This document shows positions 1,003 to 57,391 of a stretch of DNA of 64,000 bases, in pieces (positions within the stretch are counted from its first letter, which is position 1; every line of letters starts with the position of its first letter). The DNA lies in assembly GCA_965235115.1 (NCBI GenBank), contig OZ249436.1, forward strand, positions 17,548,001-17,612,000, written 5' to 3'. The position numbers and the translations under genes are program-made. The notes under the pieces were generated by a model, which was not told where the DNA came from, did not search any database, and was given only the letters and a program-made list of their open reading frames with translations. The stretch is from Laetmonice hystrix. Its lineage: Eukaryota.

Positions 1003-1222
1003 AATTCTTCCCGAAAGGTTCTACAATTCTTCCCGAAAGGTTTTACTATTCTTACTGAAAGGTTCTACAATTCTTCCCGAAAGGTTCTACAATTCTTACC
1101 AAAAGGTTTTACTATTCTTACTGAAAGGTTCTACAATTCTTCCCGAAAGGTTCTACAATTCTTACCGAAAGATTTTACAATTCTTACCGAAAGGTTCTAC
1201 AATTCTTACCGAAAAGTTCTAC
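1003..1222 (-). repeat. 22-bp minisatellite copying the CARD gene A exon 5 end and splice donor
   Basis: About 10 units; minus-strand unit GTAGAACCTTTCG|GTAAGAATT matches the real junction at 1210/1209. Confidence 0.9.
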
Positions 1223-2517
1223 ACGCAGCTTTGTCCATTCTTGATTTAGGGCTGTCAGCTCTCCCTGTGATATTGAATATAAAAAAAGAAAACTGAATGT
1301 TAAAAAAGATTCTTTCTTTCAATTTGGGAGATGGACAATTGGCTTTATTTTATTTAATTGAACGGTCGGGGGGATCTAATTTGAATTTCGATGCAACATA
1401 AGTGCTATACGTGTATGCAGCTACTCACGCGTAATTCATGCCTTCCCTGGTCACCCAGGAGGTGGATGTTGTGAAGTTTCTGTAGCATCTTGCCAACTTC
1501 CCCAAGGTCATGTTTTAATTGTGAAGTGTCTGGTATCATAACTGGAACACCAAAATTTTGGAACGATGTTTCATTTGGCTAATGGATTCATATGGCGTAA
1601 AGTACATGGTCAAATGACTCCAATTCCGAAACCCCTTGTTAAGAAGGCCGACAGAAAGTGATTGTTGACAAACTTACCAGCAGTTGGGAAAATATCAATG
1701 ACTTTTTCTCTGCCTGTGTCCACAAGGCAGTCAATTAACTTGCCGTAGTGCCACATGTACTTACACCGCATCAAGTCAAGTAACTGCCTAGACCGGGCGC
1801 GTGTAGTCTGCAATGTCTGCAATGAAATAAAATATGTGGGGTCAGTTGGCCGTGTATAGTCAGTATAGCAGGCCCCTACCCGGGGGGGGGGGGGATCGGA
1901 CCACTCCCCCCCCCCCCCCAAGGGGCAGAGGTCCACTTTTCCTTACAAAGAAGTATATGTACAGCTTTTTATTCTTGCCAGCTTTCGATGGAGAGCAAAA
2001 CCGCCGTCAAGCCCTGGTTGGCTATTTTTACCCAAGTGGTCCATCCTCACCTTTGTCGTATAGGTTCTAACATCCATTTCTTTCCAGGAACCAACTATAA
2101 TTATAAATGATGGCAAGAAATGATTAGTTTGTAGGCCTACCTTCAGTTCGTCAGCATTGTCCATAGTGAGAACACCCTGTTCCTTTAGGTGGTCTAGGAA
2201 CGAATCATCTATCAATAGGCTGTTGACGAGGTCCACCCTCCGAGAGGCGAATCCATTCTTCACCTCGTCCTGGAGGGGATGATTCCGTAAGACCGGATCT
2301 CGAGCCTGGAGAAAAGGACAGAATCTTTCAAACTGGCGGGAAATCTTCATTTGTCAACATCTAGATTACATAATTATATTCTAGTAATCTTTTATGCACA
2401 CTTTTATCAGTCAACACTTGACATTTGAAAGTATGACAATCTTACCCGCCATTGCGATTCTGTAATGCGGTTTGCGGTCGGTGTATCCATTTGGTGTCTC
2501 GATTCGTAGTTTGCCAT
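1210..2517 (-). CDS. CARD (death-fold) domain gene A, 5' five exons; 3' part not found in window
   Basis: Exons 2517-2446, 2305-2141, 1816-1678, 1541-1429, 1264-1210 (72, 165, 139, 113, 55 nt), GT-AG and phase-consistent. Peptide RRVDLVNSLLIDDSFLDHLKEQGVLTMDNADELK..RSRQLLDLMRCK..YGKLIDCLVDTG has the CARD pattern. Exons 2-5 have the same sizes as in paralog B. Confidence 0.85.
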
Positions 2518-4787: not shown

Positions 4788-4799
4788 ACCCTCAGTGCC

Positions 4800-9800: not shown

Positions 9801-11614
9801 TAGTTATGCCTGGGGGGATTCCCCATAGGGACTGGCTATTGACACCAACACGGAAACAGCTGACCTAAATTAGTTTGACTAATTCCTACACGAAACAGTG
9901 TGTTTGGGTTAGGGTAAAGGTTAGGCCTAGGGTTAGTGTTAGTTTAATCCCAAAATTGTTGTTAAAATAGTCAATAACTTCCGGCCGTGACGTCATACCT
10001 GAAGTCACTGGTTTGTAGCACGACTAATCGATCTCAGTTCGCCCAGTTCGTTCAGTTCGCTGTTTATGATGCCCCAGAGGACCTGCCATGCACTACACGT
10101 CCTTACCTGAAGGCCTGGCATCTCCTCCTCGCTGAGAACATGGAGGTTGGCAAGTCTTGGCAGGATCTCCTCAAGTGTTCTTATGTCCTGCTCTGTGTCA
10201 CCAGAAACCGGCACGATAACTATAAGCGAGTGCATTGGTATATATTACACCTTGTCGACCATATGTCAATTCTACCAGGGGCACGGGGTCTTTATGCGCC
10301 AAGTCGGTAAAGACAAGGCTGCACATAAAATTTTCTTTATGCCATATTGTCAGTTGTGATGACCCAATTGCGGAGCACTGGGACGGGAAAGTGGGACAAT
10401 GGTACTGGAAGGAAATAACCCCTTCTAACCCACTTTAGAGAGACAGGCTCGTCGTGTACAGATATGATTTCATTCGGCTGCACATTTCATTTCATAGCTA
10501 GAGACAACTTGAGCAATGGTCTACAAGAACTTACCAGGGGATGGGAGCAGCTTAGCAACATGGTCTCGGCCCATGGCCTTCAGGCAATCAATTAACTTGG
10601 CGTAATGCCACATCGACCTCCGGGTCAGCAGGTCAAAAAACATGCTTGACTGAGAATTTCCCGGGGTCTTGGCCTGTAACGATGACATAATGGGTCTGAA
10701 GGGTAGGTTAATCGTTAGTGCAGAGGTACCATAATTGTTTATCTTCATCATTACATTATAATAACTTGTGATAGAATAAAAAACAAAATGTACATCGTAT
10801 ATCACATGTATTATACTTATTCTATGGGTATTCAGGCACACAATGTACGGGTATTCAGACACACAACGTATGGATATTCAGACAACGTATGGGTATTCAG
10901 ACACAAGACGTATGGGTATTCAGACACATGACGTATGGGTATTCAGACACACGACATACCTTCAGTTCGTCGATGTTGCACTTATTGAGGATCTCGTCTT
11001 GTATAATATGGTTAAGGAACCGGTCGTTGATCAAGAGGTTGTCGGCGAGGGCCACTCTCCGACGGTTCAGGCCTTTTCTTACCTGGTATTGTAGGGGGTG
11101 ACCTTTTAACGTCTCGTCTCGAGTCTGGATGGAAATCAGTGGCCCCGGTCTCAGAAAGGCTCTAGGCAGCAAGTTTTAAGCTAAGCAGAGCTACGGCAGC
11201 CTATAGGGACATAGACCTTAAATATTGTTTTTAACTTTCCAAATTGATTTTCATCGATATTATCACAGTAATAATAATTTTACTGCGTGGTGGTAATATT
11301 TTCACAGCGGTGATTTTTCCACTCCCGTGAAAATCGATATAGAAAGTTAAAGTGTCCTCCTGCTAAGAGCCTTTCGGAAACCGGTAGGCGAACACATCGT
11401 CAAACAGAGCGGAATTTCTAAAAAAATCAGAAACAGTTTACGTTCCCCTTTACTAACAAAACTAACACGCTATTATCCAACGAACACCTCAGAGTTCGTA
11501 GTGAAACTGAATGTAAAAATCAGAGTGACAAACAGCTAGAAACGTTACCTCCCACTGTAATTTCGTTATCCTCTGCTCTGAATTAGTACGATCAACTTCG
11601 GTCGCGTCTGCCAT
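6885..11614 (-). CDS. CARD-CARD-BTB-Kelch protein (gene B), about 814 aa
   Basis: Exons 11614-11549, 11124-10960, 10673-10535, 10219-10107, 9463-9409, 9066-8885, 8750-8594, 8452-6885 total 2445 nt, GT-AG and in frame. Last exon encodes a BTB (DVELEADGVKFPVHSKII..LLYTG) and six GG-containing Kelch blades. Minus-strand AATAAA at 6799-6794. Confidence 0.8.
9752..10074. mobile_element. MITE-like palindromic insertion in gene B intron 4
   Basis: GGCATCAATAAACA..GAACTGAGCGAACTGAGATCG at the left is the inverse of CGATCTCAGTTCG..TGTTTATGATGCC at the right. Confidence 0.65.
10820..10957. repeat. 23-bp minisatellite abutting the gene B exon 2 donor
   Basis: GTATGGGTATTCAGACACATGAC about 6 times, ending at the donor at 10959. 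Confidence 0.85.
11141..11385. mobile_element. MITE of the GGCCCGGTTTCAGAAAG TIR family
   Basis: Imperfect TIRs; related sequence at about 17579, 30509 and 30750-30905. Confidence 0.6.
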
Positions 11615-14402: not shown

Positions 14403-17400
14403 TCAGTCGTCCTTATTGCGATTTTCAACCTTCAGCCAAACACCATTGATTGGCTGCAGCAGTCCGCCGAACTTGAAGGTCAACGGAATCTGGAACAAAT
14501 ATATTGGTCGCTTCACTGTTCCACGCCAGGTGAAATATCACAAAATATAATAATACAAGAAGGCAGGGTTTGCAACAAAAATTATTGTTTTCTTTCTTCA
14601 TTCGTGTCCTAAAATCCATACTGCTCGTCCCTTCGTGAACTTTATTCGACTTCAATCCTACATTAATACATTAATACCTTGTTACATTCAGCAATTATCT
14701 ATATGTAAAGGTGTGTGCACATTGCCAGTCAGCATATTGATCTATCTATATAAAGAGGTGTCTACATTGCTTGAATGTTTTACCTGTGTTTTCCCACAAG
14801 TAACCACCCTGGTTTTCCGAAGTATGTGGACGATGCCGATTTTCACCTCAAGCAGGGCAAGTCGCATCGCAATGCAGTTTCTTGGGCCATAGCCAAATGG
14901 GATCCAATCGAATGGGCCTCGCTGAGCCTTGTTCTCGGCAGAAAATCTGCCGTATATCATAGAGATTATCACTGGTGTACATATATCATAGACTAGCATT
15001 AGTGTATCATATAGACTATCACTGGTGTACATATCATAGACTAGCATTAGTATATCATATAGACTATCACTGGTGTACATATCATAGACTAGCATTAGTA
15101 TATCATATAGACTATCACTGGTGTACATATCATAGACTAGCATTAGTATATCATATAGACTATCACTGGTGTACATATCATAGACTAGCATTAGTATATC
15201 ATATAGACTATCACTGGTGTAAATATCATAGACTCTTTAGTCAGAACAAGTCTTACCTTTCAGGTTTGAATTTCTCAGGCTCAGGCCATCTTTTCTCGTC
15301 ATGGTGTATCCCAAAGATAGGAATGTTCACCATCATGCCTTTCCTCAGATGGATGCCATTAATAGTGACATCTCGCGCGGCTTCGCGGTTTCCCCTAAAC
15401 ATGAAATTTTCCAGCAGTAAAAGAAATAATCCTTGTCTGACTGCGTGTAAAAGGTACACTACAGGAATGTCTATAAGTTGATATCAAGTTAATGTAGACG
15501 TGAGATTGTAGATATCAAGTTAATGTAGACGTGAGATTGTAGATATCAAGTTAATGTAGACGTGAGATTGTAGACATCAAGTTAATGTAGACGTGAGATT
15601 GTAGATATCAAGTTAATGTAGACGTGAGATTGTAGATATCAAGTTAATGTAGACGTGAGATTGTAGATATCAAGTTAATGTAGACGTGAGATTGTAGATA
15701 TCAAGTTAATGTAGACGTGAGATTGTAGATATCAAGTTAATGTAGACGTGAGATTAGCTGTCATTACAGTATCAGTTGCCCGGCATTGTAACATTTTGGT
15801 GTGACGGATAATAGTCACGTGTACTGACTGAAAGTTGGGGATATAGTCACGTGTACTGACTGAAAGTTGGGGATATAGTTACGTGTACTGACTGAAAGTT
15901 GGGGATATAGTTACGTGTACTGACTGAAAGGTGCGGATATAGTCACGTGTACTGACTGAAAGGTGGGGATATAGTCACGTGTACTGACTGAAAGGTGCTG
16001 ATATAGTCACGTGTACTCAGTGAAAGGTGGGGATATAGTCACGTGTACTGAGTAAAAGGTGCTGATATAGTCACGTGTACTCAGTGAAAGGTGGGGATAT
16101 AGTCAAGTGTACTGATTGAAAGGTGGGGATATAGTTTCGTGTACTGAGTGAAAGGTGGGGATATAGTTACGTGTACTCACTGAAAGGCGGGCGGATAGAA
16201 TCGAAGTGATTCCATGAGGCACTGGTCCAAGTACTGCATTCCTTTCACGGTCTCATATTTCACATCCTTGTTTAAGGAGGAGTAAATAAATTACCAATAT
16301 TAAATCAAATAATCCAAGAGTCAATATAATTGTGCCTACTCGTATTCAATCTTATTTACCTAGATGTCTGACATCTGCAAGTAGTTCATCTGGTTAACCC
16401 AGTAAGCCTACCCTTGATGGCCAGGTTTAAAGGCAAAACTTGGCTAGAGGTAATCTTCTAGGTACATGTGTACATGTATTCTGACCTTGTCTCCGACAGT
16501 GTCCTCTATCTCCCGGGCTAGTTTCTCCTGACAGTTTGGGTTTAAAGCCATGTTGTACAGGAAAAGGGACAAAGTAGTTGCCGTGGTGTCAAATCCAGCC
16601 AGGAAGAAAAGGAAGCTATTGGCCAGGACCACCTCATTTGAGACACCTAACTCAGTCACAAGAACAAGAAACAAGTATAGAAAGAGGCGCATCAACGAAT
16701 CCTTCTTCTTTTTTTTTTTTACTTATTTTTGTTTTGCCGCAGATCTGAAAACATTAGTGTGTTATCCATAGATGTCAGTTCCTATGCTACAGCATAGGGT
16801 AATCGTAGGCTGTGACAAAGTGATCCACTAGGTCTCTGTGTCCAGTCCTTGAGATCGCCAGGCTGTGACAAAGTTACCCACTAGGTGTCTGTGTCCAGTC
16901 CTTGAGATCGCAAGGCTGTGACAAAGTTACCCACTAGGTCTCTGTGTCCTGTCCTTGAGATCGCTAGGCTGTGACAAAGTTACCCACCATGTCTCTGTGT
17001 CCAGTCTTTGAGATCGCGGGGCTGTGACAAAGTTACCCACTAGGTCTCTGTGCCCTGTCCTTGAGATCGCAAGGCTGTGACAAAGTTACCCATTAGGTCT
17101 CTGTGTCCTGTCCTTGAGATTGCTAGGCTGTGACAAAGTTACCCACTAGGTCTCTGTGCCCTGTCCTTGAAATCGCAAGGCTGTGACAAAGTTACCCACT
17201 AGGTGTCTGTGTCCAGTCCTTGAGATCGCTAGGCTGTGACAAAGTTACCCACTCGGTCTCTGTGTCCAGTCCTTGAGATCGCAGGGCTGTGACAAAGTTA
17301 CCCACTAGGTGTCTGTGTCCAGTCCTTGAGATCGCTAGGCTGTGTCAAAGGTACCTACCATGTTTCTGTGGCCTGTCCTTGGGATTGCTAGTCTGTGTCA

Positions 17401-20400
17401 AAGGTACCCACCATGTTTCTGTGGCCTGTCCTTGAGATCGCTGACCTCGCTTTCGTCACCCTCCGCGTCCTCTCCAGTGTCCCGGATGTCCTCCCCTTTC
17501 TGGGCGTTGATCATCAGCTGCAGGAAGTCTGCCCTGGTCTGCGTGGAGTATACAATCAGCCCTCATTAACTGTATCCTGGCTCCGGTTTCAGAAAGGCTC
17601 TAAACAGTAAGCTTGAAGCTAAGCAGAGCGCTACGGTGACTCACGAGGACACTTTGTCTGGTCCTCTTGTCCTACCCCTTATCCAATCAGCCATCAGTAA
17701 CTGTAAGATCGAGGGGTTAGGGCCCTGCCCCTTACCAGGTCGGATCGAGGGGTTAGGGCCCGGCCCCTTATACCTGGTCGGATCGAGGGGGTTAGGGGGC
17801 CTGCCCTTTACCTGGTCGGATCGAGGGGTTAGGGCCCGGTCCTTTACCTGGTCGGATCGAGGGGTTAGGGCCTGCCCCTTACCTGGTCGGATCGAGGGGT
17901 TAGGGGCCCGTCCTTTACCTGGTCGGATCGAGGGGTTAGGGCCCGGCCCCTTATACCTGGTCGGATCGAGGGGGTTAGGGGGCCTGTCCTTTACCTGGTC
18001 GGATCGAGGGGTTAGGGGCCTGCCCCTTACCTGGTCGACTCAAGGGGTTAGGGGCCTGTCCTTTACCTGGTCGGATCGAGGGGTTAGGGCCGTGCCCCTT
18101 ACCTAGTCGGATCGAGGGCTTAGGGCCGTGCCCCTTACCAGGTCGGATCGAGGGGTTAGGGGCCTGCCCCTTACCTGGGCGGATCGAGGGGTTAGGGGGC
18201 CTGCCCCTTACCTGGTCGCTATCCTGTCGTCGAGATTTCATTGTTTGCTCAAGAACACCAATGAAAAAGTTGCGGACATCTCTTGGAACGAAGGTCGTTA
18301 TGCCCAGCAGTTTTAGTAACTTTCGTAGGCCCGGGAGCATCACTGAAATGGTTCACAAAAAACATAATTTTATAGTTTTTATGTCGTCGAACCACGGCAA
18401 AGCACGATTCATCGATGGTCTAATGAAAGATTGTCGAACTGCAAGTTTAATATGCCAATGTTTCGAATGAAAACGTGCAGAGCATTTCAAGCGACATTTA
18501 AGTTACACGTAATTAGGCACAGTTGAATTTGATTTACTACACACACGTACACATGAAAAAGGTGAAAGGGCTAACTTGGAATGCCCTCAATCCGTTCTTC
18601 ACAAAGGCACTTTCTTTATCCTTCAGAGAGTCGAGTCGGATTCCAAAAGCTGTGGCGGCAATGACATCCATCGTAAAACTAGAAGCACATCTGAAGAAAC
18701 ATAGAAATGACCTTTTTCTTAGATTACAAATACTCAAGGCGAATTTACACAAAACCTTGAGGCTGGGGTGGCAGAGTACATATCTGCAAACATTTTAAAG
18801 CACAATTTTCAATACAGTAGTTATTATTCTAACATAATCTTTCTATACTGAAACTGATATTGAGACGAAGTGGAAGGATTGGATATATTAATATAAAGTA
18901 ATCCACGTACTTCTTCATTTCAAGTTCATGTCCATGTTGCTCTGCCAAATTCTCAGCCATCTGGGCACCACATCTGTTAATCTCAACTGCCATCTGTAAT
19001 ACCGCAAACATTTTTATATCATAATGATTACATTGTCGACGTAATGAGGAGATACATATAAAACTACATGCATAGGGGCATAAATGCACAACAAAATACA
19101 TAACAACAACTATAGTTTAAAAAATTGGATTGGAATAGACTGGCCAGAGTATATGCTATATAGAGGGGCCAGGGTATATGCTATAGACTGACCAGGATAT
19201 ATGCTATAGACTAACCAGGGTATATGGTATAGGCTGACCAGGGTATATGCTACAGACTGACCGGGGTATATGCTATAGACTGACCAGGGTATATGTTATA
19301 GACTGACCAGGGCTATAGACTGACCAGGGTACACCGTATATGCTATAGGCTGACCAGGGTATATGCTATAGACTGACTAGGGTACATGCTATAGACTGAC
19401 CAGAGTTTTTGCTATAGATTGACCAGGGTATATGCTATAGACTGACCAGCGTATATGCTATAGACTGACCATCTTATGCTAATGACTGACCTGAGTATGG
19501 TAATTATTAATTTACCTACCCGTTTAAGTTTTCCAGTGCTGAACACTGGACTCATTACTGTGCGTAGATCCTTCCAGCTCTCGCCTCGTGCATTCGACAA
19601 CATTTTGTCGAAAAGTTCATCGCCAGAGGTGAGGTTCTTCATCAGCCACAGAAATATATAATTGACTCTATTTCGGTGAAGTATAATTGACGAGAAATCG
19701 TTAAGTGCAAATATTTAATTAAAAAATATATACTATGTCCAAAGAAATTTTCATGAAAGTGTTGTTTGTGTGTGAGAGAGAAGTAAGATCTAAGCAAGAT
19801 ATACCAACCGCTCGATCCGTGAAGTTTGAAAAGTCCTTGACCAAAACTTGAGACAGGAAGCTGTCATCAAAAACTGTCAGGCCTGCTCTACTTCCGAAGA
19901 AGACACTGGATGAAAATGGTTTTAATATAAGACTCATTCACTTATAAATTCAGACATTAATTTTCTCATAACTGCAGGACTCGATTCTATTGGAGAGAAC
20001 TGAAAATCTCTTATAAATTTCCCAGTGTGGAGTCTACCGTTTTAAACGTCGCAATTTCATATTCAGGTATATGTATTTGTAAGATCATTTTAATGAGGAA
20101 TTACTTTGATAGTGATCATTAAAGCGTCAAGCAGCCTTGAGGTATGTTTACTTACGGTACATGTTCACCATAGGTGTTATGCAACTTGACCTCTGTCCAC
20201 GGGAACGTCTGTTTAAACAGTAACATGCGTCATGTATGTACTCCTAGACTCCTGAGCACTCCTGGCGGTTTCCCTCCCGGCGGCGCCCCCCCCCCCGTCA
20301 ACTCCCCCCCCCTGGTCAAGTTCCCACCCGGTACAGTCCCACGCGGAATGTTTCCCACCCGGTGTATTTCCCCCTGCCCAGTAATGTAAATGAATGACAC

Positions 20401-23400
20401 GAGGTACTGGACAGAGTTTCATTAATTCTTTACTTATTAACTCTGGCATTCATGGAACATTATATTGGACATATCGGGTGGATAAAAAAAACGCCCCGAA
20501 TTTCAAACTTTAATATTTCAAAAACTATGCATTATAATTCAATAACGTTTGTTTTAATATCACTTCATGATATTATCTCTGGTATGTTAAAGTTTCAGCT
20601 CAATAGTTTTTATATTAATCCCGTGGCGCTAAAAACAAAAATCATTGTCTAAAAGCGCAATGCCGGAATTAGGTCAAATATCATGCAGCTGCCAGGTGTC
20701 CAATTTGATACCTGTTTGATGCACCGCATTGTACCTTGGGTAAAAAAATTCAATATTTAGATTTTGCATGTATTACAATATGTATAATGTTGTGGACCAC
20801 TAGATATAATAAATTATGTTCTATTCCTATAGTACTTCTAGAGAAAACCAGATGTTTAATGTGCCAAACTCTACAGAGAAACTGCAACATTAGGACGATA
20901 TGACTGTAACCAGAAGTTCAAGGGAAACCGTATCATTATCACGTTTAGCAACACGTTCAGAACGTTGCGTATTTACCAATGTTGGGAAGATATTTCCCTA
21001 TCAGAGATCAGGAAGTGCATTGGCTCATAGAAAAGGAGACTGAGAGCAGTATGAAGTGAAAACGGGGGACCGATTGACCTACTCTAGTGTGAGGCCAGGG
21101 ACTCTGGGTGCGACTACAACTCGCTTTAGCCCGGCATTGCGCTTTTGTACAATGATTTTTGTTTTTAGTGCCACGGAAAAATTATCCAAGCTATTCAGTT
21201 GTAACATTAACAACTAAGAGTCATCATCATGAAGTGATATTAAGAAAAATTTCATTGAATTATAATCATTACTTTTTGAAATATTGAAGTTTAAATTTCG
21301 GGGCGTTTTTTTATCCACCCGATATATCAAATTATATAAAATTTCACGCAATTTCATTAATTTTTTTTACTAATGAACTCAACATATTGACAGAGGCCTA
21401 TATACCAGTCTCCGTATCAATCTTGATATCCATGCCTTAAACATTGAGCTGAACTGTTCTTTTGAAATGGGGCGCGATTGGGAAAATCGGAATTGTTTAC
21501 TTTACATTGAGAACTGTTCTTTAAAATGGCAGATTGTGAGATTGTAAGTGGCACGGCCCAATTATTTCAGGGTGAGTCGCACCGGGACTTGCTGTCTCCA
21601 TGCATTATGCTATCAGCAACGGGTCAGTCAGCCAGGATAGGGCATCCTGTGGGCCAATGCGTAACGTGGTAACGACAGACAGCTATAGAACCGGGTTACC
21701 GGATGGGATAGGAATCAGGGGGAAGAGGACGGGGGGGATATTCGGGTGGGAAACCGCCGGGGGGACCGCCGGGGGGGGGGGGGGGCGCCTAGACCCACAG
21801 GGACCGTATCCCTGGGTAGGACCGATTTTTTCGTTTTATTTGACTGATGCTCTTATAAAAGCAGGTTATAGATTTGAATTTACATTCTCTTTTTCCCACA
21901 GTAATATTTTACTGGCCTGATATTATAAGCCATGAGTGGGATATGTTAAATCTCATTGATTTATTCGATTCTCTATATCAACCATTCTCCCCCATAACCG
22001 ATCTGTCCCTAGCTTTAGCCATTCTATCCAGAACCGTACTGTCCCTACCTTTAGCCATTCTCCCCAGAGCCGATCTGTCCCTACCTTTAACCATTCTCCC
22101 CAGAACCGATCTGTCCCGGTTTAATCATTATCCCCAGAACCCATCTTACCCGTTCTTTAGTCATTCTCCCCAGAACCGATCTGTCCATACATTTAGCCAT
22201 TCTCCACAGGACAGATCTATCCCGGTGTAATCATTCTCCCCAGAACCGATCTGTCCCTACCGTTAGCCATTCTCCCCAGAATCGATCTGTCCCGGTTTAA
22301 TCATTCTCCCCAGAATTGATCTGTCGCTACCCTTAGCAACTATCCCCAGAACCGATTCTGTCCTTACCTTTGTCCATTCTCCCCAGAGCCGCATTGTTCC
22401 GACCAGTGGCAGAGGACGCGGGCCCTTTAACCCCTGCTTTGCGAAGAAGTTGAAGTCGCGGGTATTGTTCCTAAAATACAAATATTTAACACACAAGGAC
22501 TACTCAATACTGGGAGGTAATCAGAAGATCCTAATGTCACTTTTCAGTCACACATCACTGTTTTGATAACTAGACTAGGCTTACAAACAGATAAACCGAA
22601 CTCTTATAGTATGTCAAAAAATGAAATTTTCCTCTAAACGCGCTTTAGATTGTGAAGCTTCCAGCCCCCAACAAGAGCCATTGCATCTTGAAGATAGGAT
22701 AATATACTGTCCCTATGCATTGGAAGGTGGCTGATATAATGTGACTTCTAGCTTAAGTATCCATCATTAAAGGGGCATGCTATGAAACACGTTTTTGGGG
22801 ATTTGCGGCAATTATCCAACATGACCGTGTACTAGGGATCCAAGTAAATAATCCTACCACAGCATTTTGTCCTCCGACGTGTTTTCGCTGCGTATGCACA
22901 GCACAAGTAGGTTCTATACGACCAAACCTATAGATTTCTCCCGATAGCACATCTCCCGCCATAATTTGGCGGACAACCCCCCATAAACCCGCGTAATTGC
23001 ATACTGTGTCACATCCTGTGTGTGCACGTTCTGCATGTGCTTAGTCACGTGCTTTGCTTAGTTGTAAACAATTCAGCAGTGGCACTCGATCGCCCGGCAT
23101 CAGAATGCCACCCAAAAAATATTTTACGAAATCGGCAGAGAAGCGGGCAAGGGAGCTTAATAAACTTCGATTTCTCACGCAAAATGAAACTGATAAGTCT
23201 GTCTTTGTTTACTAAGCAATTTTAATGAAGGATCTCTTTATGAAAACAGCAAAAGTTCTATGAAATACCGATTTTTAACGTTTCCTCATAATATGCCCCT
23301 TTAATAGGCACTATGGGATTGTAGCTAACAGTCCACTAGGTCTGATAATGTCCATTTCAGTGTTAGTGAATGTTCTTAGACCTATCTCCTATCATATTAA

Positions 23401-23698
23401 GGCTGCTGACAGAGACAGTTAGTGAATGTTGTGAGACCTATCTCCTACCATAAGAAGGCTGCTGACAGAGACAGAACTAGTTAGTGAATGTTGTGAGACC
23501 TATCTCCTACCATAGGAAGGCTGCTGGCAGAGACAGTTAGTGAATATTGTGAGACCTATCTCCTACCATAGGAAGGCTGCCAACGGTGGCAGTTAGTAAA
23601 TTGTTTTGAGACATAATCTCCTACCATAGGAAGGCGATGATGCCAACAGTGACCAGTATAACCCACACAGGAATGTCGATCAGGTCGAGGATCAGCAT
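14403..23698 (-). CDS. CYP3A: Cytochrome P450, clan 3 (CYP3A-like), copy 1, about 519 aa
   Basis: Exons 23698-23625, 22470-22368, 20208-20156, 19905-19809, 19636-19520, 18993-18911, 18690-18551, 18342-18212, 17538-17412, 16646-16486, 16266-16181, 15394-15257, 14946-14784, 14489-14403 total 1560 nt in frame. N-terminal anchor, GPRPLP, AGFDTT, ESLR, PERF and heme motif PFGYGPRNCIA present. Symbol is family-level resemblance only. Confidence 0.93.
14955..15235. repeat. 42-bp intronic minisatellite next to the heme-exon acceptor (CYP copy 1)
   Basis: About 6.5 units here; only about 1.5 units at the equivalent site in copy 2 (27275-27355). Confidence 0.9.
15478..15755. repeat. 31-bp intronic minisatellite (CYP copy 1)
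   Basis: GATATCAAGTTAATGTAGACGTGAGATTGTA about 9 times; single copy in paralog near 28578-28606. Confidence 0.92.
15811..16190 (-). repeat. 32-bp array copying the CYP copy 1 exon 11 donor
   Basis: About 12 units of CCTTTCA|GTSAGTACACGTG; real donor GTGAGT at 16180. Confidence 0.9.
16808..17445 (-). repeat. 53-bp array copying the CYP copy 1 exon 9 end and donor
   Basis: About 12 units related to GCGATCTCAAGGACAGGCCACAGAAACATG|GTGGGTACC. Confidence 0.9.
17706..18218 (-). repeat. About 36-bp array copying the CYP copy 1 exon 8 donor
   Basis: About 14 units, most containing CGACCAG|GTAAGG or GTAAAG. Confidence 0.9.
19135..19490. repeat. 23-bp intronic minisatellite (CYP copy 1 intron 5)
   Basis: TATATGCTATAGACTGACCAGGG repeated; larger equivalent array at 33420-34110. 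Confidence 0.9.
20474..21322 (+). mobile_element. Internally deleted Tc1/mariner-type DNA transposon
   Basis: Long TIRs starting TCGGGTGGATAAAAAAA, flanked by TA on both sides. Internal relic near 21010-21085 reads IRKCIGS*KRRLRAV*SENGGPIDLL, resembling a mariner-family transposase C-terminus. Absent from CYP copy 2. Confidence 0.8.
21980..22392 (-). repeat. 36-bp array copying the CYP copy 1 exon 2 end and donor
   Basis: About 11 units of TCTGGGGAGAATGG..AAAG|GTAGGGACAGATCGG; about 1.5 units in copy 2. Confidence 0.88.
22771..23300. mobile_element. Non-autonomous DNA transposon with TTAA target duplication (Kolobok-like termini)
   Basis: TTAA|AGGGGCAT ... ATGCCCCT|TTAA; absent from the equivalent intron of copy 2. 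Confidence 0.7.
23362..23635 (-). repeat. About 56-bp array copying the CYP copy 1 exon 1 donor
   Basis: About 5 units containing CCTTCCTATG|GTAGGAGAT. Confidence 0.85.
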
Positions 23699-35500: not shown

Positions 35501-36329
35501 TGTTCCGACCAGTGGCAGAGGACGCGGGCCCTTTAGCCCCTGCTTTGCGAAGAAGTTGAAGTCGCGGGTATTATTCCTAAAATACAAACATTTAGCACAC
35601 AAGGACTGCTCAATACTGGGAGGTCATCAGAAGATCCTAATCTCACTTTTCAAAGTGCTCTAAAGGCGCTCTAGATTGTGAAGCTTCCAGCATCCAACAA
35701 GAGCCATTGCATCTTGAAGACAGGATAATAATTTGTATATTGTCCCTATGTATTAGAAGGTGGTTGAGATAGTCACGATGGGATTGTAGCTAACAGTCCA
35801 CTAGGTCTGATAATGTCCATTTTAATTCACAAGCCGGCGTTGAGCCCTATCTCCTACCATAGGCTGCCGACAGTGACAGTTAGTGAATGACTGTTTCTGT
35901 CGACAGCCTTCTTATGGTGGGACATATAGGTCTTACAACATTATGTTGTAAGAACTATATGTCCTACCATAGACATAGGTCTTACAACATTATGTTTAAG
36001 ACCTATATGTCCTACCATAGGAAGGCTGTCGACAGAGACAGTTATAAGTGAATGTTGTGAGACATAATTGGATCTCCTACCATAGGAAGGCACTGACAGA
36101 GACTGTCAGTTAGTGAATGTTGTGAGACCTATCTCCTACCATAGGAAGGCACTGACAGAGACTGTCAGTTAGTGAATGTTGTGAGACCTATCTCCTACCA
36201 TAGGAAGGCTGCCGACAGCGATAGTTAGTGAATGTTGTGAGACATAATCTCCTACCATAGAAAGGCGATGATGCCAACAGTGACCAGTATAAGCCACACC
36301 GGAATGTCGATCAGGCCGAGGATCAACAT
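26501..36329 (-). CDS. CYP3A: Cytochrome P450, clan 3 (CYP3A-like), copy 2, about 519 aa
   Basis: Exons 36329-36256, 35576-35474, 34864-34812, 34523-34427, 34255-34139, 33232-33150, 32921-32782, 32570-32440, 30467-30341, 29646-29486, 28988-28903, 28475-28338, 27266-27104, 26587-26501. Same sizes and motifs as copy 1. Upstream homology continues to about 37745 (24540 in copy 1). Confidence 0.93.
26680..27065. repeat. 45-bp intronic minisatellite (CYP copy 2 last intron)
   Basis: TATAGATGTAAAGGTGTGTGCACATTACCAGTCAGCATATTAATC about 8 times; single copy near 14697-14745 in copy 1. Confidence 0.92.
28661..28912 (-). repeat. 32-bp exon 11 donor array (CYP copy 2)
   Basis: About 8 units, equivalent to 15811-16190. 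Confidence 0.9.
29737..30372 (-). repeat. 53-bp exon 9 donor array (CYP copy 2)
   Basis: About 12 units, equivalent to 16808-17445. Confidence 0.9.
30750..30905. mobile_element. PIF/Harbinger-like MITE
   Basis: CTG|GGCCCGGTTTCAGAAAG ... CTTTCTGAAACCGGGCC|CTG: TIRs with a 3-bp target duplication and a palindromic interior. Confidence 0.75.
30906..31585 (-). repeat. 43-bp array derived from the CYP exon 9 acceptor region (copy 2 only)
   Basis: About 16 units; end units CTGGTCTGCRCGGATTGYACAATCAACC resemble the true acceptor region CTGGTCTGCGTGGAGTATACAATCAGCC at 30463-30490. Confidence 0.85.
31770..32446 (-). repeat. 36-bp exon 8 donor array (CYP copy 2)
   Basis: About 19 units containing CGACCAG|GTAAGG, GTAAAG or GCAAGG. 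Confidence 0.9.
33420..34110. repeat. Mixed 23/29-bp minisatellite (CYP copy 2 intron 5)
   Basis: Units differ by presence or absence of a GGCCTA insertion at a TA. Confidence 0.9.
35845..36266 (-). repeat. Exon 1 donor array (CYP copy 2), including an inverted unit
   Basis: Units with CCTATG|GTAGGA; an inverted copy near 35893-35942. Confidence 0.8.
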
Positions 36330-38095: not shown

Positions 38096-38111
38096 TTTGC
38101 TGCTGTGCCTG

Positions 38112-46193: not shown

Positions 46194-49100
46194 ATGGCTG
46201 CGAGAGCCGCTCAGAAAGTTGTTTTACGATGTGAGGATGCAAAACAGTCTCTGAAACTAGGTATGTGTCAACAGAGTTTGGAGTGCTACTCTACTAACCG
46301 GGTGGCACCCCTCCTATTCTACTCTGAGCCTCGTCTAAATATAAATGTGGAACGGGAACCACGTGGCCCCATTAGGTGGTAGAAACTTTAACGGTAGATG
46401 GCGCTGATAATCTACTACAGCGCCACCTATCAATAACTATCTCTAAATGTCGTCATGAAAGAGGGCGCAGTCCACTGCCCCATTCATCATTTCATGCATT
46501 AATTAATGCATTATCCCGCGGAACTGTCTTCCGGAGATTGGCGAGCGATGTTCCGAATGGGCCGCCCTCTCAGTCTCACTTTAAAAGTAGTTAGATTGGA
46601 AGGTTCTTCCCCCATGATAACTTTCCACGAAATGTTTGGGCAGGGGTTAGGGTTAAGGTCCGGGAGAGGGATAGAAGTCTAGCCTATAGGGATAGGATAG
46701 GGATATGTTTTGGGAGGTGTAGGGACTGGGGTTACGGGTTAGGAATAAGGTCAGGGTCATGGATCTTTACTTTCCACCAAATTTCGTGGGGTTTAAGTTA
46801 TCATGGGCGATAGATCTATACCGATTGGAAGGATCACAACTTCAAATATATCAAAATCGGTAAACCAACGCCCTCCCCCGTAGATCTAGGCCTATATATA
46901 GCCTATAGGCTACCTAGGCTACAGGAATTAATCAGACGCCTATATAATTTTGTCATAAGCCTATAGGTGTGGCTAGGGAGAAGTCAAGACAGGGGTTCCC
47001 GGAGGATTTCGCCCTTTTTTTTGGGGGGGGGGGGGGGGGAGACCATGCAAGAGTTTACTTTTTACGTTTTATTTTGGTAGGCCTAAAATAATAAATGTTC
47101 TATTTATTATTATTATAATTTTTTAAATAGATCTATAAAAATATTATTTTATATAGGCCTATATTCTTTTGTTGTTAGGCTACATAGGCCTGCTTATAGT
47201 CTAAGGTTAGGAACGAAGGACTGAGACGTCCGTTTGCTTCGGAAATTCTGTCACACCAGATCGAGGGACACGTGTCGTGAAGACCAGACCATCGCTGATG
47301 TGTCTTTTTTCAATTAGGCCTAATTTAAAAGGGCACCTCGATGCTTTTTCAGCAGACGGTAGGGGGCCTCACTGTTTCACCTTGCCGGATCTGCACGTCG
47401 GCCTGCAGTCGTGGGGGCCTACAATAGGGGCTTTGTCATTTTAATTTAGGCCTATAGGTAAAACAGTTAGTAGGCCTATTAGGCCTAGGCCTATAGGGTG
47501 CCTACTTACCCGCGGAGTGATCAACCCAGGCCTTGTCCATCCGAATATTGTGAGGCTGATGAGAAAAGGCCATGTATAATTTCTCTGCCCGGTTTGAGGA
47601 CCCCTGCCGCCGGGGTCTGTCTCCGGTCCGGAGTCTGTCTGCGCCCCCTGCCCGTGGCTCGACCCCGCCGTCCGCCCAGCCCGCTCTGTATGGCTACGTC
47701 CGGCCTGCCCGGCCTGCTCTGTCGTCGGTCTGCCGGTCGGTCTGCTGCCGGGTCGGTCAGGGTGGTTGTTGGTGGTGGTTGTGGGCCGACTGGCCCAACC
47801 TATCACAGCCCGGTGCAAAGTCTATAAAATTATAGGGCCTAGATATAAGCAATGATTATATATTGATAACTGTATATTGATAATACTGATAACAAAGGCT
47901 GCACCTTTTTCTGTTGAGATAGCGTATAGCTACACAATGTAGGCCCCAACAAATGCAAGCTGTAGAAGGTCGCCCTATCACTATATGATCTTTATTGACA
48001 TTCACGTATAGAGGATGGGGGGAGGGGCTCACTGAAAATGGACTCCGAACCTCACGGCTTATCCAAGTGAACGCGGGGGTCAACCTAGGGGAGCCAGATA
48101 ATGAACTAATTAAATAATAGGCTATAGCCTATTATTAGTTCATTGTTTCCTTGTGTGAAAATATCGGATCTGGGCGGATATTTTATAAGCTTAGGCCTAG
48201 GCCTATATAAATAAATATATATAGAAGGAGATCTAGACCCAGCATAAATATAATTAGGCCTAGGCCTATGTAGCTATAACTTGTCTGACTATGTCCAAAT
48301 CGAGTAAGATATTGTAAGATCTGGCCGGATATTTCCAGATCTGTCCAGTTCTGTACGGATATTTCTAGTTCTGTCATTATATTTCCAGTTCTGTCCGGAT
48401 ATTTCCAGATATGTCCGGATGCCAGTTGATGCACGTACCTGACGCTATATATTTGTTGCTAATGGCAACGCCACCCAACGTCTGCGATTTCTCCCAAAAC
48501 GACCTAAAAAAACTGCCAGGGAAACTATGTCTGAAGTTTCCGGCCCTTACAGGTAACGATAATGTACAAAGTTTATGAGATAGGCCTACTCTAATCTACG
48601 GTTAAGTCCTCTTCACGTTGGCCATATCTTAAGATATCGGCAAGACAGCGTAGGCCCTAGCTACTCTGGGATTATTGTCATGTTCAATCTCGTTTCTATG
48701 TAATATGTATTATAGTTGTAGCCCTATTCTGATAATTTACATGGACAATAATTATTAAATATAATCTGATCATAGTAAATTAGGCCTACAGGGTTACCGG
48801 TCGAACACATGGAGTAATGTTTTCTTTCAGAATTACGTGCAGTCTCAAACAAACTCACATCATTGCCGGAAGAATTTGGCCAACTTTCCGCACTTAAACA
48901 TCTTGATGTATCAAACAATGAAATATCAAGTTTGCCAGGCGCCCTCTACAACTTACCTTTGCTTGAAGAACTTATAATGGACAACAATCAACTAGCAGGT
49001 CAGTCTCAGATTGAAGACTTAATTAGGCCTACCTAGGCTAGGCTAATTGTCTTATAACTCCAGAGTCTATGATATCAAAACGGCGTATAGCCTCATGAAA

Positions 49101-49372
49101 TAGACAGGTGTTAAGACAGTTGTTAGTTCTGGATAGTAGGGTTATGGAAATATATCAAGTAAATAATTTTTTTAGCAACGCTAATTACATGTAGCCATAT
49201 GTGCCAGATTCTATGTTCTATGGCGTGATTGCTGACTTGACTTTCAGATGTTGATGTCTCTCACTTCCACCAGATGGCGTCGTTAAAGCGCTTGAGTTTA
49301 CGTGGCAACCCTTTGACCGACGCCTCACGAATGAGTCTCAGCCAATCGGCCAAATTCGTTGTTGACCTCTGA
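46194..49372 (+). CDS. LRRC20: Leucine-rich repeat-containing protein 20, about 167 aa
   Basis: Exons 46194-46260, 48409-48552, 48831-48998, 49248-49372 (504 nt, in frame). MAARAAQKVVLRCEDAKQSLKLDMSGCQLMHVPDAIYLLL..LRAVSNKLTSLPEEFGQLSALKHLDVSNN..MASLKRLSLRGNPL matches the LRRC20 pattern. AATAAA near 49745. Confidence 0.85.
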
Positions 49373-53230: not shown

Positions 53231-56200
53231 ATGACAATGACTGGAACTGTGAGTGGACACATGCATTATGGTGATGTTGAGGTCGCCGTAAAGCGTCACA
53301 TAAAGAACGGAGGACCTGAGATGTATGGTTCAACATACGAGTTCCTAGATCTTCAGATAGACAGTCGATGTGCCCCACTCTGCTGTGACTCACAGGAGAA
53401 GTCTATCCCACTCTACAGATACCAAGATATCCCACCATTCTTACGAGGAAATCCATATGTTGTCAGCGGTTACAGGTCACTGCTGCCGTTCAGCCTCTGC
53501 TGTCGAAGGTAAGATTAAGTGTTGTCTTCACTGAGATTATTATATATGTTTATTTGGTTGGGCTCCATAATCATTCTGTGACTGGTTTGGACATGTATGT
53601 CTGGAGAAAATATCTTTCATCTATATGCTGCAAATTGAGCAGTGCCTGATTCCCCCATGAACCTAAGATAAATGTTGCATTTTCTTAACATGTGGATTCC
53701 ACGTTGGAAAGCAATCACATGATTTTCAGTAATGTAAAAATATCAATACCATGCAAACACAATAGGGCCTACTTTCTTTTTTCCCCTGGAATGTTTGAAT
53801 CATTCAAGGTAGGATTGTTTGGGAATTACAAATGCTTTTTGCCTCATCTCACAAACAATATCTGTTCTTGAGCTGTATGATAATTTACTGACTGAAACTT
53901 TTACCTACAGCCTGTTTATCTGGAGCAATGAGACGATCAATGTTTGGTCTCACCTTGGAGGTTGCATCCTCTTTATCCTCCTCCTCATCTATGACAACCT
54001 TGTGTCACTGCCCAGCATTAGAGCGACCTTCTCGGATCACATCATCGTTTCCTTGGGCCTCGGCTGCTTTCAGGTAGGAACCACACAGTCGGATCTGATC
54101 TAACAGCTTCAAGTGTTGTCATGTTTTCAGTGTGTGTGTGAAGGATTTATATTGTAACTTAATTTGTGATACATCAGATTACAAATTATGTAATATTGTC
54201 TGAGACTGATACTGGGGTACAGATCCAATCAGATGTTAAAGTCACTTATTGGATGTTCCTACTAATTGTTTTACAAAGTTTGTAGCATGGCTTTTATTTC
54301 TGACCCTGAATGATTTCTACTCCTTCTGGCGTTCTCTCTATAGCCAAAAGTATATCAAGTGTAACAGTTGACACCCCCAAAATTACATTTCTCAGGATTT
54401 ATAAATATTTCCCCTCTGATAATTCCTTCTTTGTGTTTCAGTTTTGCCTGATATGCTCTGCTGGTTACCATCTCTTCAACTGTCACTCAGAACGGGCGTC
54501 AAAACGATGGCTAGTACTGGATCTGTCAGGAATATCTGTCGGCCTGATCGGGTGCTACCTGCCAGGAGTCCACTACGCCTTCTACTGTCTCTCAGTACGG
54601 CTTCCCTTATCAGTGTATTCAAATACATATAGACATATATGTTGCCATTCATAGAATGACTTGTTATTTAATAGCATGTTGTCGATTGAAAGTGAAACAG
54701 ATACAAAAAGTAATAGTATATATAGCATATTTCAGTGATATTTAAGAGGATTTCCAAAAGATTTTGTAATAAGATGTCAACATGTGGTTTGCATAGCAGG
54801 GCTTCAGATAATATTTTAAGGTGGGGAGTTTTTGACTCCTCCTCTTTTTTCAGGTTGCGTATTGTAGTACCCATCCTCAACAAGTGTTGCGTATTTGACT
54901 TCTAACTTCCAACTTCCAACTGACCTGCATGTGTTTGCTAATGCTGGGAACAACTGAAACTGACAACTTATAGTATTGTCCAGTTGGCACCCTACTGGCA
55001 GGGTGCCAACGTGTCCAGCTGTTGGCACCCAGCCAGTGCTTGCTGACCACTGCAGACCATTAGAAGCCCCCTCCCAACCATATTTGACGCTCAGTGCAGA
55101 AGGACTCAGCATATGGAAAGCTTTTATTACCCAATACTGATGCGTTTTTGACGATAGGGTCTTCAAAATTACTGCGTATTTCCACCACTTCAGTGCGTAA
55201 ATACGCAAATACGCACCTTATCTGAAGCCCTGGCATAGATTTACCCGATGATTACCTGTTTGTTCATGTGATGGTGTTAAGTCTGCCTGATCATCATCAG
55301 TTGTTGTTCATGGCAGTGATGCTGTTTCAGATTTGGCGAGACGTGTACCTGATCGTCATCAGTCTGTTGTTCATGGCAGTGATGCTGTTTTCAACCATGC
55401 CACAGTATAACTCCCAGGCATGGTTTTACCAACGTATCATCATGTACTGCGGCCTGGCAGCCTATGGGGTGATACCAACCATTCACTGGGTCTACCTGAA
55501 CGGGGGATTGACAGCACCTTTGGTATATGTAAGTGGTAGTACTCCCTCCATCATGGATTACAAGATAAAATATAAATATTCATCTTTTCAGTGACTTAAA
55601 TATTAAGTTCAAATTTTTTGTTTGATATATGTTTGATATATGCATGTATTAACAGCTCTCACTTTATATGAGCATGTCAAATTATGACTAGTGTCTGGCA
55701 TCTCCGGTGTAATGAGGTACACTGTGCAAGCCTTCCTTCTTTAAACATTGAATGTGCTGATTAATGTTTTCATGAGGAAAAAGCTTGAATTGCTTTTCTA
55801 TTAAATCAAGAGACAGTGAAGCATCATGCAGTCAGTACTGGTACCTTGCCTTCTTCCTGTTCTCACCATCTATGTCTGCCAGCTGCTGCTGTCTCTAACA
55901 GCTGTTATGTCCTCTTCTAACAGCTGTTCCTGCCCAAAGTGACTGTGATGTACCTGCTTGGAATCCTAGCTTTCTTCTTCTACATCACCAAATTCCCAGA
56001 GCGGTACTTCCCAGGTGAGATCTCTCAGGTGTATGTTTTATAAAATGTAAAACTGCAGGGGAAGCCTCATGTTAGTGACCTAAATAAAACTTAAAAACTT
56101 CAGAGATCATCTTAAAGTCTGTCAACAAAACAGGATTAACTTTGGAATATATTAAGATTATTATTACGTTTCTACAAGTATGTGCTGAAAATTCCATCTT

Positions 56201-57391
56201 AGACGTGTTATTTCATGAAAAATTGTGTTGAGAACTTCTACCGAGTAATTCAATGGTTTGCCTACTTTCTTGGTGGTATTAAAAAAATGGGCTAAAAATA
56301 AAGCGCGATGAACGTTTTACACTTGGCAGGACCAGGCTTCTCCGAGATTTGGAACTGGCCACTTTTTATTACTATTTGCATGTATTCTACTTATAGCTGT
56401 TGCTTCCTGGTTATTAAAATTTAACTGATTGCACACCTCGATTTGATCTTCCACTTGTACCCGTGATTTCAGCTAAAGCCTGCCATCATTTTCAGGACCC
56501 TTCTAGATGTTCCAGGTCACTTTGACTACATTGGATCAAGTCACCATTGCCGACTTGTTTTGTTGTGTTCCAGGTCACTTTAACTACATTGGATCAAGCC
56601 ACCAGTGTTGACTTTTATTGTTTTGTTGTGTTCCAGGTCACTTTGACTACATTGGATCAAGCCACCAGTGTTGACTTTTATTGTTTTGTTGTGTTCCAGG
56701 TCACTCTGACTACATTGGATCAAGCCACCAGTGTTGACTTTTATTGTTTTGTTGTATTCCAGGTCACTTTGACTACATTGGATCAAGCCACCAGTGTTGA
56801 CTTTTATTGTTTTGTTGTGTTCCAGGTCACTTTGACTACATTGGATCAAGCGACCAGTGTTGACTTTTATTGTTTTGTTGTGTTCCAGGTCACTTTGACT
56901 ACATTGGATCAAGCCACCAGTGTTGACTTTTATTGTTTTGTTGTGTTCCAGGTCACTTTGACTACATTGGATCAAGCCACCAGTGTTGACTTTTATTGTT
57001 TTGTTGTGTTCCAGGTCACTTTGACTACATTGGATCAAGCCACCAGTGTTGACTTTTATTGTTTTGTTGTGTTCCAGGTCACTCTGACTACATTGGATCA
57101 AGCCACCAGTGTTGACTTTTATTGTTTTGTTGTATTCCAGGTCACTCTGACTACATTGGATCAAGCCACCAGTGTTGACTTTTATTGTTTTGTGTGCCAG
57201 GTCACTTTGACTACATTGGATCAAGCCACCAGTGTTGACTTTTATTGTTTTGTTGTGTTCCAGGTCACTTTGATTACATTGGATCAAGCCACCAGTGTTG
57301 GCATTTTATCATCTTGTTTGCCTTCCTCTGGTGGCATCACGCCGGGCAACAAATTCTTGAGTACCGTACAAATCAACCATGTCCAGCCTGA
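53231..57391 (+). CDS. PAQR3: Progestin and adipoQ receptor family member 3, about 336 aa
   Basis: Exons 53231-53508, 53911-54073, 54442-54594, 55331-55528, 55924-56014, 57264-57391 (1011 nt). Motifs NPYVVSGYR, SNETINVWSH, SAGYHLFNCHS, PERYFPGHFDYIGSSHQCWH. Exact start ATG is uncertain. Confidence 0.9.
56507..57299 (+). repeat. 63-bp array of the PAQR3 last-exon acceptor plus exon start
   Basis: 13 copies of CCAG|GTCAC..; only the last continues into the real exon. Confidence 0.95.

Follow-up and report, generated by a model that had tools for sequence, protein, structure and literature searches.

The window, by which we mean the whole 64,000-nucleotide stretch of Laetmonice hystrix contig OZ249436.1 analysed here, contains gene A and its paralog gene B, two P450 genes (CYP1 and CYP2), an LRRC20-like gene and a PAQR3-like gene. 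Gene models were set by coordinates, with putative splice sites chosen on the open frame; the joined exons of CYP1 (520 codons including the stop), CYP2 (520), the LRRC20-like gene (168) and the PAQR3-like gene (337) each form an open frame without internal stops. Pfam matches were obtained for eight of the 13 pieces scanned (P450, LRR, HlyIII of the PAQR family, BTB and kelch), and the CARD-like exons among these 13 gave none. The exon 5 donor of gene A is supported because its exons of 165, 139, 113 and 55 nt are an exact length match to those of gene B, and because gene A extends, upstream of the window, into a BTB-kelch exon. Compared with human CYP3A, CYP intron 11 may be an additional intron.

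No RNA record was listed for positions 46150–56100, a blank that carries no information on expression. RNA support for positions 45900–56450 was considered and rejected: contigs of three listed runs (one sample from one study, possibly the source of the assembly) pass through introns and behave as DNA, and no splice joint was seen in them at the 15 of 68 joints examined. These contigs do cross the LRRC20-like exon 2 and PAQR3-like exon 5 acceptors (one record covers 47049–49173 with 0 differences), which is not independent support, and the stretch compared lies outside the long arrays.

Tandem arrays cover 28.6% of the window, compared with 4.9% and 7.1% in other loci, a 4–6-fold difference; those at or near splice junctions are listed in Table 1. 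Ten sites had been described in the first-pass annotation as having a unit that spans an exon edge plus its GT or AG. Nine of these do, and at the tenth, the CYP2 exon 9 acceptor, the array lies 440 bp off the exon; its origin from an old copy of that acceptor is indicated by an alignment score of 63 (maximum of 40 in 500 shuffles), and a dispersed palindromic element (~30745–30910) adjoins it on its exon side. Two further arrays were correctly described as abutting splice sites, at distances of 5 bp (gene B) and 7 bp (CYP1 exon 13 acceptor), and the PAQR3-like exon 4 acceptor, where the start of the exon is copied at the end of the intron, can be added to the original list. With CYP2 left aside, spanning arrays are present at six donors and three or four acceptors, so both 5' and 3' boundaries are represented.

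Table 1. Tandem arrays and duplications at or near splice junctions in the window.
Positions	Strand	Feature	Remark
1002..1223	-	22-bp x10 array spanning gene A exon 5 donor (exon 1210-1264)	5/9 spare copies keep GT
10823..10952	-	23-bp array in the intron that follows gene B exon 10960-11124	abuts, non-spanning
14952..15234	-	48-bp x5.9 intronic array abutting CYP1 exon 13 acceptor	fills intron 12 (collapsed 81 bp)
15806..16191	-	32-bp x12 array spanning CYP1 exon 11 donor (exon 16181-16266)	nearest 5 copies without GT, far 6 with GT
16802..17442	-	53-bp x12 array spanning CYP1 exon 9 donor (exon 17412-17538)	~30 bp of unit is exon
17707..18218	-	36-bp x14 array spanning CYP1 exon 8 donor (exon 18212-18342)	GT in 13/13 copies
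21980..22391	-	36-bp x11.5 diverged array spanning CYP1 exon 2 donor (exon 22368-22470)	
23362..23635	-	56-bp x4.8 array spanning CYP1 exon 1 donor (exon 23625-23698)	
28661..28913	-	32-bp x7.9 array spanning CYP2 exon 11 donor	
29737..30370	-	53-bp x12 array spanning CYP2 exon 9 donor	
30906..31586	-	43-bp x16 array from old copy of CYP2 exon 9 acceptor	not expanded in CYP1
31769..32446	-	36-bp x19 array spanning CYP2 exon 8 donor	
35442..35496	-	~1.5 units at CYP2 exon 2 donor, a seed or remnant (short direct repeat with 36-bp spacing)	CYP1 counterpart is the 11.5-copy array
36006..36266	-	59-bp x4.4 array spanning CYP2 exon 1 donor	
48344..48420	+	20-bp array, decayed, across LRRC20-like exon 2 acceptor (exon 48409-48552)	
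55263..55390	+	old duplication at PAQR3-like exon 4 acceptor (exon 55331-55528), copies ~63 bp apart	54/66 alignment columns identical
55880..55932	+	22-bp duplication spanning PAQR3-like exon 5 acceptor (exon 55924-56014), 2 spare AG	score 13, under TRF threshold
56508..57309	+	63-bp x12.8 array spanning PAQR3-like last-exon (exon 6) acceptor (exon 57264-57391)	unit nearly all exon-derived

The units, 20–63 bp in length, are mutually unrelated, as had been claimed (the smallest uncorrected shuffle p among 55 pairs is 0.025), and each spanning unit is built from the exon edge of its own gene. DNA searches with CYP1, CYP2 29700–32500 and PAQR3-like 55200–57400 matched arrays only here and in the paralog, a lower bound given that 40 candidates were scored in each search and these were crowded by transposon matches; the 63-bp PAQR3-like array had no match elsewhere among its 40 scored candidates. 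Wherever this was checked, the copy touching the exon is the one that preserves the open reading frame, because of the geometry of tandem duplication across a junction and because the gene models were themselves built on an open frame. Overall, we regard the observation of junction-spanning arrays as partly confirmed and the interpretation first placed on it as partly supported.

CYP1 and CYP2 are 92% identical, and have spanning arrays in common at donors 1, 8, 9 and 11. Copy number and GT loss vary freely between them, with copy numbers of 11.8 versus none detected, 9.0 versus none, none versus 16, and 2.0 versus 9.5 at junction and intronic sites alike; purely intronic arrays grow and shrink between the paralogs just as junction arrays do. 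No spare donor was found at CYP2 exon 2. The exon-touching copies are 94–100% identical between CYP1 and CYP2 at three of the four donors, as against 88–92% for inner copies, and those at donor 1 are only 80% identical. The copy number of long near-perfect arrays can be mis-assembled, but the internal variants within copies, and the patterned differences between CYP1 and CYP2 in the arrays that they share, make an assembly artefact scarcely credible as the source of these structures.

Raw array cover (27–31% in the window) was dropped as a background because expansion inflates it, and an edge-copy null and a collapsed-intron null were used instead. Seven of the 14 arrays in the window span a junction, compared with 2.1 expected (p 0.0016), or 2.7 expected when dispersed repeats are removed (p 0.007). 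Counted by junction, 7–8 of 64 are spanned, a 2.6–3.7-fold excess with p values of 0.0015–0.017 under most settings, and the strictest score cut-off gives 4 of 64 (p 0.38). An initial test (p 0.03–0.06), whose background kept the CYP2 introns and dropped the CYP2 junctions, is superseded by this matched version. Most of the excess is contributed by a single CYP gene, in a stretch of which arrays occupy ~29%, and for CYP1 its p value is 0.06 when the per-intron minimum lengths of both paralogs are used. The GC content of spanning (0.34–0.65) and intronic (0.31–0.45) arrays overlaps. Selection among windows, with four others of this genome considered, accounts for the window excess only in part.

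An independent set of 84 loci (290 kb) from the same genome was drawn from three gene families; these loci are array-poor, and their introns are those that fit inside loci of 1–8 kb. Ten of their 499 junctions are spanned, compared with 8.7 expected, which is a 1.15-fold ratio (95% CI 0.55–2.1) that ranges from 1.05 to 1.33 across eight settings; counted as repeat clusters, 10 of 50 span a junction with 7.8–8.2 expected (p 0.23–0.30). Taken alone, the first 30 SNF loci had 6 spanned junctions among 187, with 2.6 expected (p 0.047), which the later sets did not repeat, and the P450 loci gave 0 of 104. The ten spanned junctions are five donors and five acceptors, and the donor bias present in the window is absent here. 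The rate of array starts is flat, at 1.3–2.5%, over 5–400 bp from the junction (60 loci). The window excess exceeds the upper limit of the interval for these loci.

The first-pass annotation had proposed a mutational process focused on splice junctions, or selective retention of junction duplications, and expected minisatellites to be enriched there over the intronic background. Such enrichment is absent from the 84 array-poor loci, within an interval that allows up to ~2-fold, and a junction-focused process is not supported genome-wide; the excess in the window stays. Breaks or slippage at exon-edge nucleosome borders, or transcription pausing or R-loops at splice sites, could generate duplications at junctions, and junction duplications are seen in five of the eight CYP1 arrays and three of the five PAQR3-like acceptors. 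We nonetheless judge targeted mutation very unlikely, since array starts do not rise near junctions in 60 loci, the overall ratio is only 1.15-fold, intronic arrays behave in the same way, and the breakpoint offsets are highly variable, from 2 to 43 boundaries into the exon.

The median collapsed intron is 249 bp, and CYP1 introns are mostly 170–290 bp once their arrays are collapsed. Because collapsed introns are ~200–250 bp, about 16–30% of random seeds (a fifth to a third) straddle a junction. We propose that the arrays are probably locally born minisatellites seeded by chance across exon-intron junctions. The window excess would then be due mainly to chance in a single gene, and any retention bias would be mild at most. 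A piece of 20–60 bp would be tandemly duplicated by slippage or unequal exchange anywhere in a gene; if the seed lies across a donor or an acceptor, geometry dictates that the exon stays whole through the copy attached to it and that the extra copies fall in the intron, and duplications fully within coding sequence would mostly break the frame and be lost. Copy number would then rise and fall at junction and purely intronic arrays alike, as it does between the CYP paralogs, and in an array-rich stretch with short collapsed introns a sizeable share of random seeds would be expected to span a junction. By likeness to F7 and the amphioxus genes, splicing would take the exon-proximal site among the decoys, and because of this the spare sites would be low in cost and would not be purged.

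A real but modest excess (~1.5–3-fold) might instead reflect preferential survival, in which the exon-anchored copy, under purifying selection and shielded from deletions and insertions, keeps junction seeds alike for longer and gives them more chances of expansion, mainly in array-rich domains. The window excess (p 0.002–0.007), independent point estimates that are all at least 1 (1.0–1.4), and the high identity of exon-touching copies at three of the four CYP donors argue for this, whereas the lack of any significant independent total, the borderline CYP1 value with paralog minimum lengths, and the divergence at donor 1 argue against it. We consider it a possibility, if an unlikely one; a modest local excess, or mild preferential retention, is compatible with the data from the window.

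The description of near-identical decoys beside real sites holds well: GT or AG is kept in 94 of 112 spare copies, and 29 score at least as high as the real site. Retention in 83 of 100 copies, compared with 74% for neighbouring dinucleotides, is about that of neighbouring bases once the non-independence of copies is considered. A general purge of decoys was hinted at by CYP1 donor 11, where the five nearest copies have no GT, and by gene A, where four of nine have lost it; it is ruled out as a general phenomenon by CYP2 donor 11, which differs, and by the overall retention. None of the spare donors found by probe yields an in-frame product before the first stop. Spare sites might be functional and kept for that reason, tuning expression by unproductive splicing or providing a truncated PAQR3 isoform, and both the number and strength of the retained sites and the partial use of proximal pseudo-sites in human 6-16 and CBS, as described in part of PMC1557585, are consistent with this. 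However, with copy number and GT loss free to vary between such similar paralogs, and with retention so near that of neighbouring bases, we think it extremely unlikely.

The last exon of the PAQR3-like gene has 12 spare acceptors ahead of it, each followed by an early in-frame stop, and introns 3 and 5 of this gene end in exon-derived sequence. A one-exon homolog search found one match among 26 candidates, too few for a comparison of gene structure. Within its first dozen bases the real last-exon acceptor can be told apart from every spare copy. A broader reading, which we put forward tentatively and think rather doubtful, is that, where this genome is rich in arrays, seeds that span a junction are favoured 2–3-fold because the exon-anchored copy keeps the seed alive. 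Splice sites would then be minisatellite nurseries, and intron ends would be rebuilt from exon sequence time and again. At the working acceptor of the PAQR3 last exon, the pyrimidine tract would derive, with modification, from exon sequence that codes for a transmembrane segment, and splicing would skip 12 near-identical upstream acceptors. Use of these would yield a protein truncated within the last exon, a position at which the message should escape junction-dependent decay. If true, this would make the PAQR3 last exon a natural test of terminal 3' splice site choice.

The main value of these observations is quantitative, the structure itself being known. Across three gene families of this genome, such duplications occur at about 2% of junctions, near the proportion expected under neutrality; this suggests that a spare splice site directly beside a real one is nearly cost-free. 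Any junction clustering of repeats needs to be assessed relative to the lengths of collapsed introns. Acceptor choice and minisatellite birth could be studied in the PAQR3 terminal exon and in the CYP pair (a seed in one copy, 12–16 units in the other). Junction arrays also mislead gene prediction, and alignment here placed a false 9-nt exon inside one array.

The window arrays are 'mirages', of the kind already described in amphioxus and in human F7, CBS and LMNB2. Canestro et al. 2002 is said to be the original mirage paper. Our literature search, which covered articles rather than their supplements, found neither a genome-wide enrichment test nor an annelid mirage report, which is weak evidence of absence. 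In the relevant passages of PMC3087553 and PMC3902484, mirage minisatellites are described in amphioxus Adh3, globins BflGb6 and BflGb9, troponin C and PGBD5, with normal splicing and exon-proximal choice reported. As in those genes, the unit here spans the exon-intron boundary and many but not all copies carry GT or AG. Copy number differs between the paralogs here, which might correspond to the length instability of mirages. The hosts differ—a cephalochordate there, a lophotrochozoan here—as do unit sizes, with 20–63 bp here and, in the same passages, 150–160 bp for the amphioxus globins and 10–72 bp for Adh3; a random-placement null was applied here, and those passages contain none. Repeats of earthworm metallothionein, in the part of that work considered here, are intronic and non-junction-spanning.

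Intron gain or sliding by tandem duplication, the Rogers model as set out in the pertinent sections of PMC2891723, is similar in that duplicated exon sequence turns intronic, as at PAQR3 introns 3 and 5, and differs in that the arrays here lengthen existing introns. Human exon-intron VNTRs, in the section of PMC1557585 that covers F7 IVS7 (37 bp), CBS IVS13, 6-16, LMNB2 and PDGF, share with the window arrays a first monomer that spans the junction, by which the donor is reiterated into the intron, and in F7 the most upstream donor is used. Each of the human cases is single in its gene, whereas five donors are affected in one gene here, and, unlike the human VNTRs in that section, the arrays in the window also occupy acceptors, one of them ahead of a terminal exon.

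Coordinate-based models were built for six genes of the window in this 627 Mb genome of 35 contigs. CYP1 and CYP2 are tandem P450 paralogs with 14 exons and proteins that are 92.5% identical; these two, the LRR gene and the PAQR-family gene all give uninterrupted frames after exon joining. Pfam matches in 8 of 13 pieces back the P450, LRR and PAQR assignments, and likewise the BTB-kelch end of gene B. The more specific names CYP3-like, LRRC20, PAQR3 and CARD, in part those of the first-pass annotation, are used here as presumptive labels. Genes A and B are paralogs whose exons agree in length (165/139/113/55), and gene A extends upstream beyond the window edge; both points support the array-bearing donor of gene A. 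The short N-terminal exons of the BTB-kelch paralogs look CARD-like, and a Pfam scan gave them no match. CYP exons 11 and 12 together seem to correspond to a single exon of human CYP3A. For a single-exon P450 of this genome, the best named relatives (61–65% identity) belong to Owenia, Mytilus, Lineus and Mercenaria, which makes the host a lophotrochozoan.

Ten exon-intron junctions had been listed as carrying tandem arrays whose unit takes in the exon edge together with its GT or AG, and nine of them do. The tenth, the CYP2 exon 9 acceptor, does not. The 43-bp array of CYP2 intron 8 is homologous to that acceptor (score 63, against at most 40 in shuffles), but 440 bp separate the two, the array lying on the far side of a dispersed palindromic element; CYP1 shows no such expansion. 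A further case is an old duplication at the exon 4 acceptor of PAQR3. A 20-base probe applied to 15 sites, two of which yielded none, recovered 112 spare copies, 94 with GT or AG intact. Scored with a matrix built from the 32 donors and 32 acceptors of the window itself, 29 of the 112 equal or exceed the real site. No spare donor detected with this probe yields an in-frame product ahead of the first stop, and all 12 spare acceptors of the PAQR3 last exon lead to a stop (11 after 12 residues, one after 22). Among 100 copies of 10 arrays, 83 retain GT/AG, against 74% for neighbouring dinucleotides; the copies are not independent, but nothing points to a general removal of spare sites. The near-lost, far-kept GT pattern of CYP1 exon 11 is not seen in CYP2.

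The same annotation noted that the frame-preserving site is always the copy touching the exon. The pattern needs no special process, since a tandem duplication over a donor yields exon, GT, intron piece, exon piece, GT, intron; the exon-joined copy is whole and, provided the proximal site is used, all extra copies are intronic. At the PAQR3 last exon the array unit aligns to exon almost throughout, and the pyrimidine tract of the working acceptor is thus a modified exon copy. Prior to the duplication, the dispersed element that now ends at the far edge of this array would have lain some 10 bp away from the acceptor, and a damaged tract may thus have been replaced by the exon-derived one.

Other elements are listed in the table. 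The 746-bp and 461-bp elements look like polymorphic insertions, as both are skipped by the contigs of all three DNA runs.

Positions of features in the window
Positions	Strand	Feature	Remarks
1210-2500; 6885-11614		Two tandem paralogs	Short N-terminal exons joined to single large BTB-kelch exon; also includes locus L085
12898-13909		Large intergenic array, 41 bp x25	Unrelated to splice sites
15395-16180		CYP exons 11 and 12 (86 + 138 nt)	Intron between them possibly extra; two arrays in CYP1
15990-16180		CYP1 exon 11	Weak real donor; nearest five spare copies without GT, six far copies with GT
20468-21336		~860-bp element, CYP1 intron 2	~200-bp terminal inverted repeats; at least 38 copies elsewhere (92-94% identity); absent from CYP2
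30745-30910		Dispersed repeat	Ends exactly at edge of 43-bp array
43155-44861		Large intergenic array, 340 bp x5	Unrelated to splice sites
51807-52552		High-copy element, 746 bp	9 bases fit either side like a target duplication
54797-55257		High-copy element, 461 bp	Ends just before exon-derived duplicate at PAQR3 exon 4 acceptor
56180-56509		Dispersed repeat	Ends exactly at far edge of PAQR3 63-bp array
59787-62800		Large intergenic array, 69 bp over 3 kb	Unrelated to splice sites
63043-63861	-	Open frame, 273 codons	By eye like end of a retroelement protein; no match in Pfam scan

Arrays of the CYP pair at donors 1, 8, 9 and 11 are older than the gene duplication; their inner copies are about as similar between the paralogs as within each. 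The exon 2 donor array has 11.8 copies in CYP1 and none detected in CYP2, and orthologous intronic sites differ similarly (9.0 and none, 2.0 and 9.5, none and 16, 15.8 and 27.7), such that seed-versus-array differences occur at the junction site and intronic sites alike.

Tandem arrays (period at least 10) cover 28.6% of the window, compared with 4.9% of 30 P450 loci and 7.1% of 30 SNF loci elsewhere. Raw cover is an unsuitable background because expansion inflates it, and two nulls were used: the share of positions that fall within the edge copy of tandem duplications with periods of 10–130, and seeds placed randomly in introns with arrays collapsed. With CYP2 left out as a near copy, duplications span 7–8 of 64 junctions, the background being 3.4–4.1% (2.6–3.7-fold, p 0.0015–0.017 over eight settings); the strictest score cut-off, in the unmatched version, shows no excess (4/64). 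Counted by arrays, without the gene A donor, whose next exon falls beyond the window, 7 of 14 span a junction (2.1 expected, p 0.0016; 2.7 expected once dispersed repeats are taken out, p 0.007). CYP1 contributes five of these seven, where 2.5 are expected from the shorter paralogous intron lengths (p 0.06). A mild bias towards retaining arrays at junctions is the main rival account of such counts, one we consider possible but doubtful.

A custom spliced profile aligner was applied to 84 further loci (30 P450, 46 SNF, 8 myosin; 290 kb). Run on CYP1 with a distant profile, it gave exact edges for exons 11, 12 and 13 and the exon 14 acceptor, but missed exon 9, misplaced one acceptor by 4 bases and called a false 9-nt exon within an array; score filters were therefore applied (exon at least 15 bits and 45 nt), which passed 552 junctions, or 499 after removal of near-identical paralogs. 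In this sample of three families, best-scoring exons, short introns and array-poor regions, there is no significant junction excess: 10 of the 499 are spanned against 8.7 expected (1.15-fold, 95% CI 0.55–2.1, p 0.37), and 12 of 532 against 9.3 under a looser filter. By set, the counts are 0/104 for P450, 6/187 for the first SNF set (2.6 expected, p 0.047), 3/121 for the second (2.3 expected) and 1/81 for myosin (0.8 expected). Counted by arrays over 240 introns (collapsed median 249 bp), 10 of 50 clusters, some of them split pieces of spaced direct repeats, span a junction against 7.8–8.2 expected (p 0.23–0.30), as do 7 of 22 large clusters (5.3 expected). Array starts do not increase approaching junctions in 60 of these loci. 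Together with the 1.15-fold ratio, this speaks against the proposal of a mutational process focused on splice junctions, which we regard as very unlikely. The junction-spanning duplications, in SNF, myosin and P450 genes on other chromosomes, are at L031, L039, L044, L047, L054, L055, L061 (two sites), L068 and L082, with L017 and L037 added only by the looser filter.

The best explanation, and in our judgement a probable one, is that array seeds fall near-randomly in the short introns of an array-rich domain, and that splicing at the exon-proximal site would let the spare sites be tolerated.

Structures of this kind are known. Tandem repeats over exon-intron boundaries, termed mirages, are described for the amphioxus genes Adh3, globins, troponin C and PGBD5; they reportedly leave splicing undisturbed and have an origin that the authors call unclear (PMC3087553, PMC3902484). 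Donor-reiterating VNTRs are likewise described in human F7, CBS, 6-16, LMNB2 and PDGF; only the most upstream donor is reported as used in F7, and two pseudo-sites besides in 6-16 and CBS (PMC1557585). The window arrays are genuine and form a dense, tidy example of this already known structure; on features that can be judged from sequence, they appear to work like mirages and exon-intron VNTRs and to belong to the same kind.
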